Positions 3,582 to 46,400 of a DNA stretch of 58,458 nucleotides are shown piece by piece. Position 1 is the first letter of the stretch, and each line of letters starts with the position of its first letter. A program made the position numbers and the translations under genes. The notes under the pieces are model-generated. The model saw nothing but the letters and a program-made list of their open reading frames with translations. It made no database searches and was not told the DNA's origin. The stretch is from IMG/VR virus record IMGVR_UViG_2724679172_000006. The stretch is one strand, 5' to 3'. Origin of the DNA: a virus (lineage: Duplodnaviria; Heunggongvirae; Uroviricota; Caudoviricetes).

Positions 3582-3833
3582 TTAGTGAGTTAGCAGTTCC
3601 ATTTTTTGGATGATTTCCGCATGAGCATCATCGTTATCAACACTTAACTCGTTTAATGCCTCTCGCACTACATCAACTTCTTCTGGTTGGAAGAAGTCAT
3701 CTCGGTAGTCACCAAATAGAACCGAAACAAGCCTGCCACCAGCAACATCAAGATTGGCGCTAACAGGTGGCTCTTTACCATCCTCAAATTCGACTACAAA
3801 AGTTATTTTTCCCATCGTTACCACCAGCGACAA
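3582..3833 (-). CDS. hypothetical protein (83 aa, acidic)
   Basis: ORF track only. Confidence 0.45.
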   Translation of the reverse strand: MSLVVTMGKITFVVEFEDGKEPPVSANLDVAGGRLVSVLFGDYRDDFFQPEEVDVVREALNELSVDNDDAHAEIIQKMELLTH

Positions 3834-3897
3834 ATTGAATACAAACCCAGTGCTGCCGCCATCACAATTCCTACCGTGGTGAATGCTTCAGGCCAGC

Positions 3898-4803
3898 TCA
3901 TTGATTCACCTCCTGCGGCGGTTCTGGTAGCGGCATCCAGTGTGACGGTTTCCACGACGCACCAGGAATTATCCACCCATCATTAGCGTCAGGATGCCCC
4001 GGGATGTAAGTAGCCCATTTCATTCGCCAGTCACCTTTCCTGTCAAACTCCACGGCAACAAGAACGGCTGTTTTGGTATTCGGCATTCGCTCACTACAGC
4101 TTATCCAACCATCCGGAGTTACCGGAACTTGCGGAATGGCTGTCTGCTCTCGAACGTCATTAGGCGCTATAGGTTCTGCTGCCAACTGACTGGCATATTT
4201 GTTAATGGTAACGATAAGCTCTTGCTCAGCCTCATCCAGACAATCACCGATACCTCGCCTGTCACCGTCAAAATCATCGAAATCGGCACGAATCTTGGCA
4301 ACCTTCAGGATTGCGGACAACACCTCACTAGGAATTACCGGATAGTTGGTTGACGTTTCCGCGATTTCCCGAAAATTATTGGTTGACGAATTCTTGTTTT
4401 CCCGAAAGTTTCCGGACTGAAGCATGGCGGCGCGGCAGGCGTTCCAGCCAGCTGTTCGCCCAAGCGCGTAAACTTCAGATGGCTCAAGATAATCAATGTC
4501 ATGCCCGTCCTCATCGTCGTTCTCAGGTAATGCAGCAGGTACTACCGGTACTGGCGGAGCGGTGTAGACCTCAATAATCCCATTATCAATAGGCCATTCT
4601 CCATCCTTGAGATAGTCACTTGTGCCGTCAACTTGCTGTTCAGCAATGTGGAATGCACCAACTGGCTCTGCCTCAAGCGAGGCCAGTGCAATTCGTGCCA
4701 GTTCTTCCGCTTCTTCTGCTGGCAGTACAACGTTGCTACCAGGTCCGTATGTTTCGCGCCACTGCCTGATTGTCAGCAGTCGCTCTTTGGTAATAGTGGT
4801 CAT
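3898..4803 (-). CDS. hypothetical protein with DUF551-like C-terminal domain
   Basis: C-terminal W/P-rich segment (WISCSERMPN..WMPLPEPP) typical of phage DUF551 proteins. Confidence 0.5.
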   Translation of the reverse strand: MTTITKERLLTIRQWRETYGPGSNVVLPAEEAEELARIALASLEAEPVGAFHIAEQQVDGTSDYLKDGEWPIDNGIIEVYTAPPVPVVPAALPENDDEDGHDIDYLEPSEVYALGRTAGWNACRAAMLQSGNFRENKNSSTNNFREIAETSTNYPVIPSEVLSAILKVAKIRADFDDFDGDRRGIGDCLDEAEQELIVTINKYASQLAAEPIAPNDVREQTAIPQVPVTPDGWISCSERMPNTKTAVLVAVEFDRKGDWRMKWATYIPGHPDANDGWIIPGASWKPSHWMPLPEPPQEVNQ

Positions 4804-5637: not shown

Positions 5638-5970
5638 TCACATCACCCTGAATCCGTTGCATTTACGTAAGAAATCGCAGATATAGCCCTTCATTTTTTC
5701 ATGCCAATCTCGATCATTCCCATTGCACCAACCATCAGGTGGAGTCCAGTTTTCTATCAGAGCAGCCATTTTCTTTGCTTTCGCCGGAGTAGCTGTTGCG
5801 GTATCGCAGTAATGACGAGTGTCAACCAACGCATCCATACCATCGATATCAAGTACGCAAAACCATGTGTGATTCGGAATTCCTACAGGTGGTATTTGTT
5901 GCCCACGTCGACGTTTATCAATAAGATATACACTCACTGCTTGCCTCCTTTGCGAATCTGTTCCGCCCAT
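5638..5970 (-). CDS. hypothetical protein
   Basis: ORF track only. Confidence 0.45.
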   Translation of the reverse strand: MGGTDSQRRQAVSVYLIDKRRRGQQIPPVGIPNHTWFCVLDIDGMDALVDTRHYCDTATATPAKAKKMAALIENWTPPDGWCNGNDRDWHEKMKGYICDFLRKCNGFRVM

Positions 5971-6659
5971 TCTTCAAGGGATTTCTCCGCATATTCACCG
6001 GACAGGCCATCAATCGGATGCGGTTCATTAGCCAACTCTTCTTTCGCTGACAAAATCATGCGTGTAACGTCGAAAACTTCACGCAAAGATTTATTGATAA
6101 ATCCGTGATTGAACGCAGCAGCAAGACGGCTGGCGGTATAGTTAATCCCCTCGTTGCGTGCTTCCGCACGAATTTCAGCCAGAAAAGCATCGGTGGCTGA
6201 AATATTTCCTGTTGCCTTCATGGCCCCCAAAATAACCAGAACGCCATCTCGCCCAACCTCCTCAGCGATAACCTCGGTGTTGTCGCCAACAACATCGCAG
6301 AATGCCTGAACTGCCTTACGAGCCAGCTCATTCTCCGCCGCCAGCGCCGCGCACTTGGCCTCAAGAGCGGCAACCACTTCCTGATGGTCTTTGTACTTAA
6401 CGTATGAGCCGGAGATGTCATCACCTTCGGTGTTTAGCCATGCGTCATTGCAATTCACTGCGTAGGTTCTGATGCTCATGTTGATGCTCTCCCGCCCCTG
6501 ACAGACGCTAGGCCAGTCAATAAAGTATCCGCAATGCCTACCCTCAGACGTGCGCGCAGGATAAATGCCGTTATGACCCGGCAAAATATATGCTACCCAT
6601 TCATCTTGCGTTGCCTGTTTCGCCGCCTCGCGCAGTTCTTTATAGTTAATTTCGCTCAC
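5934..6659 (-). CDS. Ead/Ea22-like phage protein
   Basis: N-terminus MSEINYKELREAAKQATQDEW..; C-terminal AEQIRKGGKQ shared with next gene. Confidence 0.45.
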   Translation of the reverse strand: MSEINYKELREAAKQATQDEWVAYILPGHNGIYPARTSEGRHCGYFIDWPSVCQGRESINMSIRTYAVNCNDAWLNTEGDDISGSYVKYKDHQEVVAALEAKCAALAAENELARKAVQAFCDVVGDNTEVIAEEVGRDGVLVILGAMKATGNISATDAFLAEIRAEARNEGINYTASRLAAAFNHGFINKSLREVFDVTRMILSAKEELANEPHPIDGLSGEYAEKSLEEWAEQIRKGGKQ

Positions 6660-6895
6660 TGGTTGCCTCCTTTACGGATCTGCGCTGCGATGCGCGAAAA
6701 AAAAGACTCCCGCGTATGACTGTTAAGAGCTGGCGCGAACGCTGCGTTAAGAACAGCAGCATCACAGCCGTCATCAATATAGAGCGCAATTTTTTTCTCC
6801 AGGCGCGCTTTGGCTTCCTGCAACTGCATACCCCGGCACGCACGCGGGATATAATCAGCAATTTGAGCGATAGCCTTTTCGTTCTGTTTAAACAT
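6656..6895 (-). CDS. hypothetical protein
   Basis: ORF track; C-terminus AAQIRKGGNQ repeats the end of the upstream gene. Confidence 0.4.
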   Translation of the reverse strand: MFKQNEKAIAQIADYIPRACRGMQLQEAKARLEKKIALYIDDGCDAAVLNAAFAPALNSHTRESFFSRIAAQIRKGGNQ

Positions 6896-30872: not shown

Positions 30873-31145
30873 TTGACTATATGCGATAGCGAGAAGTTGA
30901 CTATAGGCGACATTCGTTGACGCTGGTGGATTTTTGCTGGCGTCAATATTCTGCAAGTCGCTATTGAGATGGCTTTTAGGGTCATTTCATCGCGTATAGT
31001 CAACGTTTCTCCCGACAATATCTTACATAGTCGATCTTTGGTGGAGTTAAATCGACTACAGTCAACTTTTGACTGTAGTCACATCGCGCATAGTCAACTA
31101 TTCACATTAACCTTCGCGCATAGTCAACATTTGCGCGGTTCTCAT
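30873..31145. repeat. downstream iteron array (incA-like copy-control locus)
   Basis: About nine iteron copies in both orientations, e.g. TTGACTATATGCGA, TTGACTATAGGCGA, CGCGTATAGTCAA, CGCGCATAGTCAA x2. Confidence 0.7.
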
Positions 31146-31162
31146 CAAGCAGTGGTATTGAT

Positions 31163-31972
31163 ATGCAAGAAGAGAAACAACACTACCTCTACGTTCTGGT
31201 GCCAGAGAACGGAGATACTTTTAAAATCGGCATTTCATGTGGTCCATTGGCACGGTTTAAAGGGCTACAAGTGAGTCCCGATTTTGCGCTTTCACGGGTC
31301 TATCGTGGTACACGTTTGGCAATGGTTAATCTTGAGCGGGCTTTACACGCAACCTTTTTCCCCTGGAATGCGCCGTGGGGGAAAAGCGTCGGTGGCGGGC
31401 ATACTGAATGGTTTACACGAGAGTGTCTTGATAAGGTTTTGGCTCATATCGAATATCTAAATGATATGTGGGGAGGGATTCTCGAGCGCATTAAGTCGAA
31501 TGATTTACTTCAGCGTCCAGTAGATGCTGCTTGCTCTTTCGAAAAAGAGCTGGATGTTACTTCTATCGTGACTTTCAAAGATGACGCAGGAATGAGGGAC
31601 GTGGCTTATGTCTCCATATCTGGCTATGAACCGGACGCGATCCGCGCTCAATGTGAATTGCTGAAAGCAATGTTTATGCTTCGGACTAAATATCCCTGGG
31701 ATACAGGGCGGGTGTGCTTCCCTATGGAAGAGTTAACCGCCACCATTGATTCCCAGCTTTACCACGATAATCCAGAGAAGTTTTTTAGCCTTTTAGCCGG
31801 TAATGGGCTTAACTGTGTGTCCGGGCTGGGGCGAAGTAGAATCCAACATGCCTCGCTCTTCGGTCCCTTCTTTTACGATCGACACGGGTACTTTGAGGCT
31901 GAACTTCCGGCGCTTACGCGTGCTATAGATACTATCGATTTCGAACGATTATTCGCTGCTCTTAGCAAATAA
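31163..31972 (+). CDS. T5orf172/MUG113-type GIY-YIG-like domain protein with uncharacterised C-terminal domain
   Basis: N-terminal YLYVLVPENGDTFKIGIS..RVYRGTRLAMVNLERALHATF..GGGHTEWF fits the T5orf172 signature; own terminator. Confidence 0.5.
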   Translation: MQEEKQHYLYVLVPENGDTFKIGISCGPLARFKGLQVSPDFALSRVYRGTRLAMVNLERALHATFFPWNAPWGKSVGGGHTEWFTRECLDKVLAHIEYLNDMWGGILERIKSNDLLQRPVDAACSFEKELDVTSIVTFKDDAGMRDVAYVSISGYEPDAIRAQCELLKAMFMLRTKYPWDTGRVCFPMEELTATIDSQLYHDNPEKFFSLLAGNGLNCVSGLGRSRIQHASLFGPFFYDRHGYFEAELPALTRAIDTIDFERLFAALSK

Positions 31973-31979
31973 CACTGAT

Positions 31980-32001
31980 GCCCCTGAACGGGGCTTTTTT
32001 G
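31980..32001 (+). terminator. intrinsic terminator
   Basis: GCCCCTGAACGGGGCTTTTTTGT. Confidence 0.55.
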
Positions 32002-32140
32002 TGCCTTTCTTGTAACTCTCAATCGTGCAAAATGAACCAAACATGCAGAGAATGCTATGTACAAGCATCTACGCATACATTATTATTTTATGCAGCATTT
32101 TTAATTAAATTCAAAAATACAGCATAAAGGATGACTTTCG

Positions 32141-33337
32141 ATGAGTGATTCCAGCCAGCTTCACAAGGTTGCTCAAAGAGCAAACAGAATGCTCAATGTT
32201 CTGACTGAACAAGTACAGTTGCAAAAGGATGAGCTACACGCGAACGAGTTTTACCAGGTCTATGCGAAAGCGGCACTGGCAAAATTGCCTCTACTGACTC
32301 GAGCGAACGTTGACTATGCCGTAAGTGAAATGGAAGAAAAGGGTTATGTTTTCGATAAACGCCCTGCTGGCTCTTCAATGAAATATGCGATGTCAATTCA
32401 GAACATCATTGACATATATGAACATCGCGGAGTGCCAAAATACCGGGATCGCTACAGCGAAGCGTATGTGATTTTCATCTCCAATCTTAAAGGCGGTGTG
32501 TCAAAAACTGTATCGACGGTTTCTCTGGCGCATGCAATGCGTGCTCATCCTCATCTTCTGATGGAAGATTTAAGGATTCTGGTTATTGACCTTGATCCGC
32601 AATCTTCAGCAACGATGTTTTTAAGCCATAAACACTCTATTGGTATCGTAAACGCAACATCTGCACAGGCTATGTTGCAGAATGTAAGCCGTGAAGAGCT
32701 GTTAGAGGAGTTTATTGTTCCTTCTGTTGTACCTGGGGTTGACGTTATGCCTGCGTCGATTGACGATGCCTTTATTGCATCCGATTGGAGAGAGCTGTGC
32801 AATGAGCATCTACCGGGTCAGAACATCCATGCAGTCCTGAAAGAAAATGTGATTGATAAGCTGAAGAGCGATTATGACTTTATCCTCGTTGATAGTGGTC
32901 CTCACCTTGACGCCTTCCTGAAAAATGCTTTGGCCTCGGCCAATATACTGTTTACACCTCTGCCGCCTGCAACGGTTGATTTCCACTCATCGCTTAAATA
33001 CGTTGCCCGCCTTCCTGAGTTGGTGAAACTCATTTCGGATGAAGGCTGCGAGTGTCAGCTTGCAACTAACATTGGTTTTATGTCCAAGTTGAGTAACAAG
33101 GCAGACCATAAGTATTGCCATAGCCTGGCTAAAGAAGTGTTCGGTGGGGATATGCTTGATGTCGTCCTCCCTCGCCTTGACGGTTTTGAACGCTGCGGCG
33201 AGTCTTTTGACACTGTTATTTCAGCTAACCCGGCAACGTATGTTGGTAGTGCTGATGCATTGAAGAACGCGCGAATTGCCGCGGAAGATTTTGCTAAAGC
33301 AGTTTTTGACCGTATTGAATTTATCAGATCTAACTGA
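32141..33337 (+). CDS. parA: partition ATPase ParA (type Ia, with N-terminal DNA-binding extension)
   Basis: 398 aa; deviant Walker A NLKGGVSKT; directly upstream of parB and parS. Confidence 0.9.
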   Translation: MSDSSQLHKVAQRANRMLNVLTEQVQLQKDELHANEFYQVYAKAALAKLPLLTRANVDYAVSEMEEKGYVFDKRPAGSSMKYAMSIQNIIDIYEHRGVPKYRDRYSEAYVIFISNLKGGVSKTVSTVSLAHAMRAHPHLLMEDLRILVIDLDPQSSATMFLSHKHSIGIVNATSAQAMLQNVSREELLEEFIVPSVVPGVDVMPASIDDAFIASDWRELCNEHLPGQNIHAVLKENVIDKLKSDYDFILVDSGPHLDAFLKNALASANILFTPLPPATVDFHSSLKYVARLPELVKLISDEGCECQLATNIGFMSKLSNKADHKYCHSLAKEVFGGDMLDVVLPRLDGFERCGESFDTVISANPATYVGSADALKNARIAAEDFAKAVFDRIEFIRSN

Positions 33338-33353
33338 GGAGTAAGAAACCCCC

Positions 33354-34355
33354 ATGTCAAAGAAAAACAGACCAACAATTGGGCGAACCCTTAATCCTTC
33401 AATATTAAGCGGATTTGATAGTTCTTCAGCCTCTGGCGATCGAGTCGAGCAGGTATTCAAGTTATCAACTGGTCGCCAGGCCACATTTATTGAAGAGGTA
33501 ATACCTCCGAACCAGGTAGAAAGCGATACCTTTGTTGATCAGCATAACAACGGGCGTGACCAGGCATCTCTTACGCCAAAATCATTAAAAAGTATCCGAA
33601 GCACTATTAAGCATCAGCAATTTTACCCTGCAATAGGTGTTAGACGGGCTACAGGGAAAATTGAAATTTTGGATGGTTCCCGGCGTCGAGCTTCTGCCAT
33701 CTTAGAGAACGTAGGGTTGCGGGTTTTAGTCACGGACCAGGAGATCAGCGTTCAGGAAGCGCAAAATTTAGCGAAAGACGTTCAGACAGCATTGCAGCAC
33801 AGCATTCGAGAAATAGGTCTGCGTTTGATGCGAATGAAAAATGATGGGATGAGTCAGAAGGATATTGCAGCCAAAGAAGGGCTGTCTCAGGCGAAGGTCA
33901 CGCGTGCTCTCCAGGCAGCGAGTGCTCCGGAAGAATTAGTCGCCCTTTTCCCTGTTCAGTCGGAATTAACCTTTTCGGACTACAAAACGCTTTGTGCTGT
34001 TGGCGACGAAATGGGGAACAAGAATTTAGAGTTTGATCAGCTTATTCAAAACATATCCCCGGAAATAAACGACATCTTATCCATTGAAGAAATGGCCGAA
34101 GATGAAGTTAAAAATAAAATCCTGCGCTTGATAACAAAGGAAGCCTCACTACTCACGGATAAAGGTTCTAAAGATAAGTCCGTAGTTACTGAATTATGGA
34201 AATTTGAGGACAAGGATCGCTTTGCAAGGAAGCGCGTGAAAGGCCGTGCATTTTCTTATGAGTTTAATCGACTTTCAAAAGAGCTACAGGAAGAACTCGA
34301 CAGGATGATTGGGCATATCCTTAGAAAGAGCCTCGATAAAAAGCCGAAGCCTTAA
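33354..34355 (+). CDS. parB: partition protein ParB
   Basis: 333 aa; 16 nt after parA; followed by heptamer/hexamer centromere. Confidence 0.9.
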   Translation: MSKKNRPTIGRTLNPSILSGFDSSSASGDRVEQVFKLSTGRQATFIEEVIPPNQVESDTFVDQHNNGRDQASLTPKSLKSIRSTIKHQQFYPAIGVRRATGKIEILDGSRRRASAILENVGLRVLVTDQEISVQEAQNLAKDVQTALQHSIREIGLRLMRMKNDGMSQKDIAAKEGLSQAKVTRALQAASAPEELVALFPVQSELTFSDYKTLCAVGDEMGNKNLEFDQLIQNISPEINDILSIEEMAEDEVKNKILRLITKEASLLTDKGSKDKSVVTELWKFEDKDRFARKRVKGRAFSYEFNRLSKELQEELDRMIGHILRKSLDKKPKP

Positions 34356-34359
34356 ACTT

Positions 34360-34445
34360 TCGCCATTCAAATTTCACTATTAACCAACTGTTTTTAAAGT
34401 AAATCCATCTAAAATTTCAAGGTGAAATCGCCACGATTTCACCTT
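34360..34445. other. parS centromere
   Basis: ATTTCAC heptamers at 34371, 34422 (inverted) and 34436; TCGCCA hexamers at 34360 and 34428; AT-rich IHF-like spacer. Confidence 0.8.
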
Positions 34446-34507
34446 GGATTTTACCTTCCTCCCCTACTCCCGAAAAAAATAAAAAAATTGCTTGTCACGA
34501 GAAAGTC

Positions 34508-34529
34508 AACAAGTGACTTTCAATAAAAT
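34508..34529 (+). promoter_or_regulatory. candidate late promoter element
   Basis: AACAAGTGAC-N6-TAAAAT upstream of head gene. Confidence 0.35.
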
Positions 34530-34559
34530 CTCTTCCGAAAAGGGATTCACACAAGTGCC

Positions 34560-36287
34560 TTGTGTTTAAGGAAGAGTAAATTGAGTAACTTACGCGAATA
34601 CCAGAATCGTATTGCAGATATCGCAAAACGCTCTAAAGCTGTGCTTGGCTGGGCAAGCACTGCGCAGTTCGGTACTGATAACCAATTCATTAAAGATGAT
34701 GCCGCGCGTGCCGCATCTATCCTTGAAGCTGCACGTAAAGACCCGGTTTTTGCGGGTATCTCTGATAATGCCACCGCTCAAATCGCTACAGCGTGGGCAA
34801 GTGCACTGGCTGACTACGCCGCAGCACATAAATCTATGCCGCGTCCGGAAATTCTGGCCTCCTGCCACCAGACGCTGGAAAACTGCCTGATTGAGTCCAC
34901 CCGCAATAGCATGGATGCCACTAATAAAGCGATGCTGGAATCCGTCGCAGCAGAGATGATGAGCGTTTCTGACGGTGTTATGCGTCTGCCTTTATTCCTC
35001 GCGATGATCCTGCCTGTTCAGTTGGGGGCAGCTACCGCTGATGCGTGTACCTTCATTCCGGTTACGCGTGACCAGTCCGACATCTATGAAGTCTTTAACG
35101 TGGCAGGTTCCTCTTTTGGTTCTTATGCTGCTGGTGATGTTCTGGACATGCAATCCGTCGGTGTGTACAGCCAGTTACGTCGCCGCTATGTGCTGGTGGC
35201 AAGCTCCGATGGCACCAGCAAAACCGCAACCTTCAAGATGGAAGACTTCGAAGGCCAGAATGTACCAATCCGAAAAGGTCGCACTAACATCTACGTTAAC
35301 CGTATTAAGTCTGTTGTTGATAACGGTTCCGGCAGCCTACTTCACTCGTTTACTAATGCTGCTGGTGAGCAAATCACTGTTACCTGCTCTCTGAACTACA
35401 ACATTGGTCAGATTGCCCTGTCGTTCTCCAAAGCGCCGGATAAAGGCACTGAGATCGCAATTGAGACGGAAATCAATATTGAAGCCGCTCCTGAGCTGAT
35501 CCCGCTGATCAACCACGAAATGAAGAAATACACCCTGTTCCCAAGTCAGTTCGTTATCGCGGCTGAGCACACGGTACAGGCGGCGTATGAAGCACAGCGT
35601 GAATTTGGTCTGGACCTGGGTTCCCTACAGTTCCGCACCCTGAAGGAATACCTGTCTCATGAACAGGATATGCTGCGTCTTCGCATCATGATCTGGCGTA
35701 CTCTTGCGACCGACACCTTTGACATCGCTCTGCCGGTTAACCAGTCCTTTGATGTATGGGCAACCATCATTCGTGGCAAATTCCAGACTGTATATCGCGA
35801 CATTATTGAGCGCGTTAAATCTTCTGGTGCGATGGGGATGTTTGCTGGTGCTGATGCAGCATCTTTCTTCAAACAGTTGCCGAAGGATTTCTTCCAGCCA
35901 GCCGAAGACTATATCCAGACTCCGTATGTTCACTACATCGGTACCCTGTTCGGTAACGTGAAAGTGTACGAAGTACCTGCTGGTATTTGTAAGAACTTAA
36001 CGACAGAGAACATTCAGTTCAGCTCGATGGATGTGCTGTGCTACGTCCGTGATGAAAATCCGGGTAAAGCAGGCTTCGTGACTGGTGATGCTGTCCCGGC
36101 TATCCCGTTCCAGCATCCGACCACTCCGGCGCTGGTCAACCGTACCACACTGTGGGGTTCGGCTATCAACGATATGCACCCACGCAACGGCGCTGATTAC
36201 TTCACTCGTGTAACGCTGACAATGGCCAAAAAAGGCGGGCTTAACTTCATTAGCGGCGACACGATTGATGCCGGTGACTCTGAGTAA
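34560..36287 (+). CDS. major head (capsid) protein precursor, gp23-like
   Basis: 575 aa; first structural gene beyond parS, as in P1; real start probably the TTG a few codons in, after GGAAGAG. Confidence 0.55.
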   Translation: MCLRKSKLSNLREYQNRIADIAKRSKAVLGWASTAQFGTDNQFIKDDAARAASILEAARKDPVFAGISDNATAQIATAWASALADYAAAHKSMPRPEILASCHQTLENCLIESTRNSMDATNKAMLESVAAEMMSVSDGVMRLPLFLAMILPVQLGAATADACTFIPVTRDQSDIYEVFNVAGSSFGSYAAGDVLDMQSVGVYSQLRRRYVLVASSDGTSKTATFKMEDFEGQNVPIRKGRTNIYVNRIKSVVDNGSGSLLHSFTNAAGEQITVTCSLNYNIGQIALSFSKAPDKGTEIAIETEINIEAAPELIPLINHEMKKYTLFPSQFVIAAEHTVQAAYEAQREFGLDLGSLQFRTLKEYLSHEQDMLRLRIMIWRTLATDTFDIALPVNQSFDVWATIIRGKFQTVYRDIIERVKSSGAMGMFAGADAASFFKQLPKDFFQPAEDYIQTPYVHYIGTLFGNVKVYEVPAGICKNLTTENIQFSSMDVLCYVRDENPGKAGFVTGDAVPAIPFQHPTTPALVNRTTLWGSAINDMHPRNGADYFTRVTLTMAKKGGLNFISGDTIDAGDSE

Positions 36288-46109: not shown

Positions 46110-46293
46110 AATGGCAGCCTCCTTTTGCTAATTTAAGGAGCTACCGCGTGAGGTTCCAATCTCAATGGCGGTAGCACTGACTGGGTTGGAACTACCGGCG
46201 CAAAAGGGAACCGGCCTGCCTTTCGGCAGCCCAGCCAGCACTACCATTGATCTCGGAGCTATGTGCTACGTATGGTTGTGCGATGGCATGACA

Positions 46294-46400
46294 CAAAAAA
46301 AGACGCTTTTGGCGTCTATGTCGCCTTTTGCATTATCCGGGGTTCCAATCCCGGCATCCGTTTTACTAAGATGCCTGTTTAGGATAAACCGAAAATGCAT
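46294..46400 (-). ncRNA. c4: c4-like antisense regulatory RNA (approximate bounds)
   Basis: Hairpin CCGGGATTGGAACCCCGG (46337-46354) followed by terminator hairpin AGACGCcaaaAGCGTCT plus U-run (46293-46317); loop complementary to GTTCCAA elements at 46133 and 46167 in the icd leader. Confidence 0.35.

Follow-up and report, generated by a model that had tools for sequence, protein, structure and literature searches.

The P1-like phage-plasmid recorded as IMGVR_UViG_2724679172_000006 (58,458 nucleotides, analysed at its full length and here called the window) carries, inside its p0111-type replicon, a gene for a two-domain protein in which an N-terminal T5orf172/GIY-YIG nuclease domain is joined through a predicted linker to a C-terminal domain of predicted winged-helix fold. 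The gene, hereafter the T5orf172 gene, lies between the iterons downstream of the replication initiator gene repA and the promoter of the partition gene parA. Three other P1-like elements have diverged homologues in that position, which travel with their repA and iterons as a block, and the gene is polymorphic in its presence, evolves fast and is dispensable for the maintenance of its carrier. We tentatively read its product as a free-standing, site-specific nuclease of the I-TevI/Seg kind, acting in conflict between related replicons, and give this reading slightly less than an even chance.

The T5orf172 gene and its nuclease domain

The gene is an 810-nt open reading frame on the + strand, running from an ATG at 31163 to a stop codon that ends at 31972, with its start codon 34 nt past the end of the last downstream iteron core. 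Beyond the stop codon stands a hairpin whose stem of 5 bp is made up entirely of G-C pairs (31980-31994) and is followed by TTTTTT; homology to phage P1 restarts at 32039, just 5' of the -35 hexamer of the parA promoter (Ppar), with parA itself beginning at 32141. The initial annotation, made from the letters of the window and its open reading frames, had described a reading frame of this length with its own terminator between the last downstream iteron and the parA promoter, and the reading frame, the repeats and the hairpin with its T run all agree with that description. A comparable hairpin and T run also occur 3' of the homologue in one of the three other elements (L078, below). The gene and its parts are as follows.

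31163..31972, + strand: T5orf172 gene, encoding a 269-residue T5orf172 plus winged-helix protein (open reading frame; full-length match to PHROG phrog_2876; RefSeq name)
31184..31417, + strand: N-terminal T5orf172/GIY-YIG nuclease domain, residues 8-85 by Pfam, structured to about residue 110
31508..31540, + strand: predicted flexible linker, residues 116-126 (predicted local distance difference test, pLDDT, below 50 in model m2be9d91ef792)
31541..31969, + strand: family-specific C-terminal domain, residues 127-269, a predicted winged helix resembling the WH1 domain of Rep proteins
31980..32004, + strand: hairpin resembling an intrinsic terminator (GCCCC-TGAAC-GGGGC), with a T run after it (fold -11.9 kcal/mol, z = -1.9)

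Profile searches placed the N-terminal domain in the T5orf172 family (PF10544, residues 8-85, E = 2e-5, 25.5 bits, the gathering cut-off being 20), and the homologous proteins P0004, P0009 and P0011 also cleared this cut-off (27.8, 25.1 and 26.7 bits). The same region (residues 4-100) matched PHROG 681, annotated as an endonuclease, at E = 3.8e-9. Of the T5orf172/MUG113 signature proposed at first for the GIY-YIG superfamily, the T5orf172 half is upheld by both profile and predicted fold, whereas the Pfam matches to MUG113 and to Tox-URI2 fell under their respective cut-offs; the motifs on which that proposal rested (YLYVL, KIGIS, LERALHATF and GHTEWF) all lie within the first 85 residues. In the structure model the domain has the alpha/beta fold of GIY-YIG enzymes, its best predicted-fold match being to the SLX1 GIY-YIG nucleases. 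SLX1 and At-HIGLE are otherwise unlike the T5orf172 protein, to which they are 11-18% identical, as SLX1 has a C-terminal RING/PHD-type domain, needs SLX4 and acts on branched DNA instead of particular sequences. When predicted viral structures were searched with Foldseek, all 16 matches at E <= 1e-3 were T5orf172/GIY-YIG proteins, including a putative Hef-like homing endonuclease and a CapR-homology protein, and the next match was ORF88 of phage ICP1, known as Odn (E = 3.8e-3).

Among homologues at 25-44% identity, residues Y8, Y10, K21, G23, R31, E58, H62 and E82 are invariant, as is the K21-I22-G23 triplet. From motif spacing, we equate R31, at its distance from K21, and the Glu of TEWF (E82) with the Arg and Glu that serve catalysis in GIY-YIG enzymes such as I-TevI, and Y8/Y10 with their strand-1 Tyr. 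Because of the profile matches, the predicted fold and these invariant catalytic-type residues, the protein is likely to be an active nuclease.

The gene was already known by annotation. It appears as a 'GIY-YIG nuclease family protein' in RefSeq, as PHROG 2876 (function unknown) and as gp57 of phage JL22, all of which are the same gene, with annotation in some 400 plasmids and in 12 records of phages; these sources assign no function, do not describe the C-terminal domain and do not note the slot across replicon types. In phage phi456 (OR339795.1, 39982-40788) the same reading frame bears the label 'terminase small subunit', apparently in error, and in MH422554, MH445380 and MH445381 it is present without annotation.

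A predicted winged helix after the linker

The initial annotation had found nothing recognisable in the remaining 170 residues. At the level of sequence families this holds, as residues from about 106 to 269 matched no family in Pfam, NCBIfam, PADLOC, PDB sequences or PHROGs other than their own PHROG 2876, and a hidden Markov model of the C-terminal domain, run against about 150 relatives of the N-terminal domain, found nothing outside the P1-like family. The region is, however, not featureless once a structure is predicted for it. An AlphaFold2 model built from four sequences (mean pLDDT 72.5; five concordant models spanning 70.7-72.5) gives the C-terminal domain a core in the order helix 157-173, strand 182-187, helices 188-211 and strands 215-220 and 227-231, which is the predicted equivalent of the classic winged-helix order.

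By two methods, the best non-nuclease structural matches were to Rep WH1 domains (6h24, 1hkq, 2z9o/RepE54 and RctB), and they were weak. Foldseek, searched independently against solved structures, produced no match at E <= 0.001; the top rank went to 6h24 (probability 0.80, E = 0.08), and RepE54 and pPS10 RepA were among the best twelve, again with weak scores. Neither tool printed the aligned ranges, and we place the Rep matches in the C-terminal domain because several alignments span 122-137 columns, longer than the N-terminal domain of about 110 residues, and because the order of secondary structure fits. The domain thus bears a weak, predicted-fold likeness to the WH1 of Rep_3-family initiators such as pPS10 RepA, F RepE, MSBI1.176 Rep and Vibrio RctB. 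The N-terminal domain is far better conserved than this C-terminal one, with 63, 40 and 39% against 32, 18 and 22% identity to the window in the three homologues.

Kinship in sequence between the C-terminal domain and RepA was considered and rejected, BLASTP against the window's own RepA returning E = 2.7 and hhalign against five RepA types a probability of 0.2%.

An alternative replicon module

As a P1-like phage-plasmid, the window has a replicon of the type that is named 'p0111' in such elements (PMC9603915). Blastn against P1 gave 98.0% identity over window positions 27000-29779 and 99.3% over 32039-34854, and in the intervening 29780-32038 the only nucleotide homology to P1 was a 59-nt stretch inside repA. 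A 2.26-kb block, comprising origin iterons, repA, downstream iterons and the T5orf172 gene, therefore stands in for the 1.5-kb IncY replicon of P1. Its components and their neighbours are listed below.

29780..32038, no strand assigned: replicon module of p0111 type, replacing the IncY oriR-repA-incA block of P1 (blastn against P1)
29804..29904, + strand: five origin iterons of GTTGACTATACGCGA type, spaced 21-22 nt, 5' of repA (repeat search, family D1)
29986..30870, + strand: repA, Rep_3-family initiator of 294 residues (Pfam)
30871..31132, no strand assigned: downstream incA-like iterons, two direct (30871-30910) and four inverted (30990-31132) (repeat families D1 and D3, inverted pairs I1-I6)
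32039..34355, + strand: P1-identical Ppar, parA (32141-33337) and parB (33354-34355) (Ppar annotation taken from P1)

Upstream of the origin iterons are a DnaA-box-like TTATCCACA and GATC sites. The initiator matched Rep3_C above the Pfam cut-off (27.3 bits) and Rep3_N just under it (22.0 bits against 22.4), and is 42% identical to P1 RepA. ParA and ParB, by contrast, are 99.7% and 100% identical to those of P1 and match the Pfam families HTH_54, AAA_31 and ParB. In P1 itself the interval between the last incA iteron and the Ppar -35 hexamer is gene-free and about 190 bp long. A further iteron-like copy, TGTTGACTATAAGCGA, lies inside the repA coding sequence (30588-30603; 94% identity to the reference iteron). 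Between the two groups of downstream iterons there is an inverted repeat, TTGACGC…GCGTCAA (30916-30950), which may be a RepA operator or a half-iteron; a similar left arm, ATTGACGCTGG, occupies the same spot in two other elements (L003 and L079, below).

The gene had been proposed to be cargo inserted in a P1-type maintenance cassette. That canonical P1 and two IncY plasmids lack it accords with that idea, but it is the whole block from 29780 to 32038 that differs from P1, as an alternative replicon module. Nor can the gene be regarded as a recent arrival, since three divergent P1-like elements, which among them use three iteron types, carry homologues at 27-44% identity in exactly this slot.

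One slot, four variants, three iteron types

Among the plasmids of PLSDB, 401 carried the gene at >= 95% nucleotide identity, and 399 carried a repA-iteron block of the same type; the gene accompanies the module there in nearly every case. It was also present in 12 P1-like phage records (of 50,697), and positions 29900-32200 of the window matched phage RCS47 at 99%. Of 5426 complete Escherichia coli genomes, 412 encoded the gene, at 421 places of which 414 were on plasmids. The other seven copies stood on records classed as chromosomes, such as NZ_CP007394.1 (2172674-2173483), and may represent integrated or mis-assembled P1-like elements.

The full-length family is far narrower than its nuclease domain. 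Just two full-length forms came from the two word-index searches, which covered 5.8 billion protein clusters; an exhaustive HMMER profile search of 1.84 billion representative proteins added P0009 and P0011, together with about 150 further proteins that shared the N-terminal domain only. Full-length members are confined to P1-like elements, with four divergent forms among the 1.84 billion representatives. A scan of genome contigs found one locus, of window type, whilst scans of viral and metagenomic sequences found window-type copies save for one weak, partial match (L048).

All four full-length forms (those of the window, L003, L077 and L078) were found on P1-like backbones, between downstream iterons and parA, and in every one the ATG lies 20-34 nt past the last iteron. 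The three homologous loci compare with the window as follows.

L003: window-type iterons; RepA 84% identical to the window; T5orf172 protein 44% identical to the window
L077 (Salmonella): P1-type iterons, ATGTGTGCTGGAGGGA; RepA 83% identical to P1; T5orf172 protein 27% identical to the window
L078: a third iteron type, GGCTACTGTATGCTAC; RepA 43-48% identical to all others; T5orf172 protein 29% identical to the window

The proteins of L078 and L077 are 40% identical to one another. Between L003 and L077 the partition proteins are near-identical (ParA 99.7%, ParB 98.2%), whereas identity is 40% for RepA and 29% for the T5orf172 protein, and it is from this disparity in sequence that repA, the iterons and the T5orf172 gene are judged to be exchanged as one block.

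Two of these loci call for comment. L077 is a contig of Logan accession SRR6505940 (repA 5813-6670; homologue P0009 7001-7882) and represents a rare P1-like element with an IncY-like RepA; tblastn found no full-length match of P0009 type in PLSDB, where partial alignments at 40% identity, covering 39% of the query, fell on the gene of window type, so that the P0009 form appears to be absent from that collection. In L003 the gene call for P0004 includes a 41-residue N-terminal extension (6001-6123; …IAYSQHKHFSFAYSQH…) that is translated from the downstream iterons, and the true start is likely to be the conserved ATG that aligns with the start codon of the window.

Absence, decay and selection

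Comparison of this junction across related elements found the gene present in the window, L003, L077 and L078, and absent from P1 itself, from two IncY plasmids (L080 and L081; ParA of 401 residues, ParB of 321 residues, 400-bp gap between repA and parA) and from L079. A gene present in every P1-family replicon, with a known role in replication, would have spoken against the accessory status first proposed for it; the absences from P1, L080 and L081 run the other way, and no replication role is known for the gene. Many IncY-type plasmids in PLSDB match P1 only as far as the last incA iteron and then continue into a different par operon (401 and 321 residues, sizes as in L078); the junction directly 3' of the downstream iterons is therefore a general boundary of recombination between the rep and par modules.

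L079 (CP042620.1, 84962-93113) belongs to a 93.7-kb Escherichia coli plasmid with a non-P1 gene order and tail genes. It encodes a RepA 85% identical to that of the window (repA at 3706-4590 of the locus), with five origin iterons and downstream iterons of the same type and arrangement, and has neither the T5orf172 gene nor an adjacent parA. Because L079 carries it, the window's replicon type is not confined to P1-like backbones, in contradiction to the statement that IncY and p0111 replicons occur only in P1-like phage-plasmids (PMC9603915).

Decay was surveyed in 72 window-type copies from viral and metagenomic contigs plus one representative genome, 67 of them full length. Most of the full-length copies (58 of 67) were intact. 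Three independent nonsense alleles accounted for eight copies (codon 68, n = 1; codon 112, n = 5; codon 228, n = 2) and a frameshift for one, two further copies were truncated, and the record of phage vB_EcoM-673R5 matched the gene in three pieces. Ratios of nonsynonymous to synonymous substitution (dN/dS, pairwise Nei-Gojobori) were 0.29 for the T5orf172 gene across 35 alleles, alike in both domains, compared with 0.023 for repA, 0.004 for parA and 0.048 for parB. On these sequence comparisons the protein is under selection yet dispensable for plasmid replication and partition, because nine of the 67 full-length copies carry a nonsense mutation or a frameshift. The gene shows neither the constant presence nor the intolerance of inactivation expected of a core replicon gene.

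An essential role in replication is ruled out by the nonsense alleles together with the gene-less replicon of CP042620.1.

Other features of the window

Gene order in the region is dmt, rdgC, upfC/upfB/ppfA/upfA, repA, the T5orf172 gene, parA, parB and the major head gene. Elsewhere in the window, Rfam searches identified a C4 antisense RNA (46164-46251, - strand, 76.7 bits) and isrK (46296-46374, - strand, 58.3 bits), which we take to mark the P1 immI immunity region, and, at the Rfam gathering threshold, three tRNA genes on the - strand (21386-21458, 23089-23161 and 23167-23239).

A nuclease in conflict between replicons?

The initial annotation had offered three functions: a selfish gene resembling homing endonucleases, an addiction or exclusion nuclease, and a phage-defence effector. 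A homing-endonuclease-like or exclusion nuclease is the candidate that fits the present data best, and phage defence is unsupported. The reading we prefer, if tentatively, combines a T5orf172/GIY-YIG catalytic domain (residues about 1-110), a linker (116-126) and a winged-helix domain (127-269) that would bind DNA, in a gene that some P1-like phage-plasmids carry as an accessory passenger of the replicon module. Co-infection, or superinfection of a lysogen, would bring two P1-family genomes together, and the nuclease would then act on the rival, a genome that lacks the gene or has another replicon type, and cut it at or near its replicon; given the Rep-like domain, the rival's iteron region would be the prime candidate target. 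The cut could destroy the competitor, as Odn of Vibrio phage ICP1 does, or its repair from the nuclease-carrying genome could copy the nuclease gene along with the linked repA-iteron block, that is, homing with co-conversion. A carrier would be safe only if its own iterons were not targets, which would explain inheritance as one block with repA and iterons; such inheritance is compatible with homing co-conversion without being proof of it. The domain make-up, the conserved catalytic-type residues, the fixed position, inheritance as a block, polymorphic presence, fast evolution and dispensability come from the sequence comparisons and the structure model, whereas nuclease activity, DNA binding by the C-terminal domain, the identity of the target and either outcome are all steps that we infer.

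Free-standing homing endonucleases offer the closest parallel. In I-TevI and SegA-G of T4-like phages, a flexible linker connects an N-terminal GIY-YIG catalytic domain of about 100 residues to a DNA-binding domain at the C terminus. The T5orf172 gene resembles them in domain layout, in its intergenic seat between conserved genes with a terminator of its own, in its presence/absence polymorphism, in fast evolution and in frequent inactivation, and the predicted combination of a nuclease with a separate, linked DNA-binding domain is what would be expected of such an enzyme. It differs from them in that its catalytic domain is of the T5orf172 branch, with KIG for YIG, and in that it is close to fixation in the p0111 lineage, with the majority of its copies intact; moreover, the binding domain of I-TevI is built from a zinc finger and a helix-turn-helix, unlike the Rep-WH1-like winged helix predicted here.

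Four observations weigh against our preferred reading. The p0111 module lies nearly always beside a P1-type par operon, so that nothing directly indicates that homing into different backbones has recurred. About 85% of copies are intact and under purifying selection, which fits a function useful to the element equally well as a purely selfish gene. Tblastn and blastn with the four homologues detected neither a relic of the gene nor a clean empty site in the incA-Ppar spacer of P1, so that insertion and deletion are indistinguishable there. Lastly, a consensus scan found no sigma-70-like promoter directly 5' of the ATG; transcription presumably comes by read-through from repA or starts inside the iteron array.

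In a more specific form of this reading, which we consider doubtful, the protein would be a replicon-homing or origin-directed nuclease whose Rep-WH1-derived domain directs it to competing P1-family replicons, either to their iterons or to RepA bound there. It would cut them, and the rival would be eliminated or else repaired from the carrier genome, with the whole repA-iteron-nuclease block being copied in. The precedent is Odn (Gp88), the origin-directed nuclease of ICP1, in which a T5orf172 domain is combined with a RepA-like origin-binding domain and which cuts the origin iterons of a rival satellite (PMC8263062). Both proteins are encoded by mobile elements, both join a T5orf172 domain to a second one that is akin to an initiator's origin-binding domain in Odn and may be so here, to judge from a weak fold resemblance, and both operate or occur in a setting of iterons and swappable replicon modules. 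Their differences are substantial. Odn has its RepA_N-like domain at the N terminus and T5orf172 at the C terminus, the reverse of the order found here, and any likeness between the two would therefore be convergent. The binding domain of Odn is 42% identical to the RepA_N of its target, whereas the C-terminal domain studied here lacks sequence similarity to RepA, as the BLASTP and hhalign values above indicate, and has only a weak fold likeness to WH1 of the Rep_3 type, which is unrelated to RepA_N; a recent, Odn-style chimera is therefore rejected. Odn is also part of an anti-satellite locus in a lytic phage, in contrast to a gene that sits inside its carrier's own replicon module. Were this specific form true, it would amount to a gene drive for plasmid replicon modules, would account for the split of P1-like phage-plasmids into IncY and p0111 and for diversifying replicon specificity, and would be the first Odn-like system beyond the ICP1/PLE pair, of independent origin and opposite domain order.

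A different explanation, unlikely but deserving of attention, is that the protein is a domesticated accessory factor of replication or copy number, working with its cognate RepA and iterons. Its WH1-like domain could pair with the WH1 of RepA or bind iterons and so modulate handcuffing or initiation, or it could repress transcription as CapR does; CapR (PMC8096241) is a precedent for domesticated T5orf172 proteins. The invariable position directly 3' of the copy-control iterons in all four variants suits such a role, as do the shared direction of repA and the T5orf172 gene with no terminator detected between them, their inheritance as a block, and the fact that the best structural matches of the C-terminal domain are to Rep WH1, the domain of initiators that serves dimerisation and iteron binding. 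Against it, nonsense, frameshifted and truncated alleles persist in circulating elements, the SJ46 sequence among them, and dN/dS exceeds the value for repA more than tenfold. The replicon of CP042620.1, of the same type, works without the gene, as do the IncY replicons of P1, L080 and L081, and a pure DNA-binding regulator would have no need of the invariant catalytic-type residues.

Anti-phage defence or superinfection exclusion, in which the protein would degrade the DNA of incoming unrelated phages or trigger abortive infection to the benefit of the lysogen, appears distinctly unlikely. A fast-evolving, single-gene nuclease of polymorphic presence would be at home in an arms race, and phage-plasmids are reported to encode defence genes (PMC13221032). 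However, neither the whole protein nor its C-terminal domain matched a PADLOC-DB v2 family at E <= 1, a sensor or partner gene is absent, and the fixed position beside the iterons in four divergent elements, with movement as a block with repA, argues for replicon-related specificity; the best matches of the putative DNA-binding domain, to replication initiators, likewise point to replicons rather than to generic phage DNA. That the gene is a decaying relic, a former homing endonuclease gene without present function and nearing loss, is very unlikely, for while about 15% of copies are disrupted and two clusters of fragments, P0002 (205 member sequences) and P0003 (229), stand beside a full-length cluster of 1241, dN/dS is 0.29 in both domains rather than about 1, 58 of the 67 full-length copies are intact, and both domains with their catalytic-type residues are kept across homologues at 25-44% identity.

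Significance

Within the literature searched, nothing tied GIY-YIG proteins to P1-like elements or phage-plasmids, and three features of the gene appear to be undescribed there: a slot conserved across three iteron types, inheritance as a block with the replicon, and the Rep-WH1-like fold predicted for the C-terminal domain. P1-like phage-plasmids are common carriers of extended-spectrum beta-lactamase and other resistance genes, and their IncY and p0111 replicon types serve in typing. As a putative nuclease with a Rep-like domain, co-inherited with one of these replicon types, the T5orf172 protein offers a concrete candidate, open to test, for a weapon with which replicons compete or for a driver of module replacement. 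Confirmation of this would take origin-directed nucleases beyond a single phage-satellite system and into plasmid biology; the protein might then serve as a natural, sequence-specific tool against particular plasmid origins. Should it prove to be only a selfish homing endonuclease, it would still be a neat case of such a gene residing within a plasmid maintenance module.

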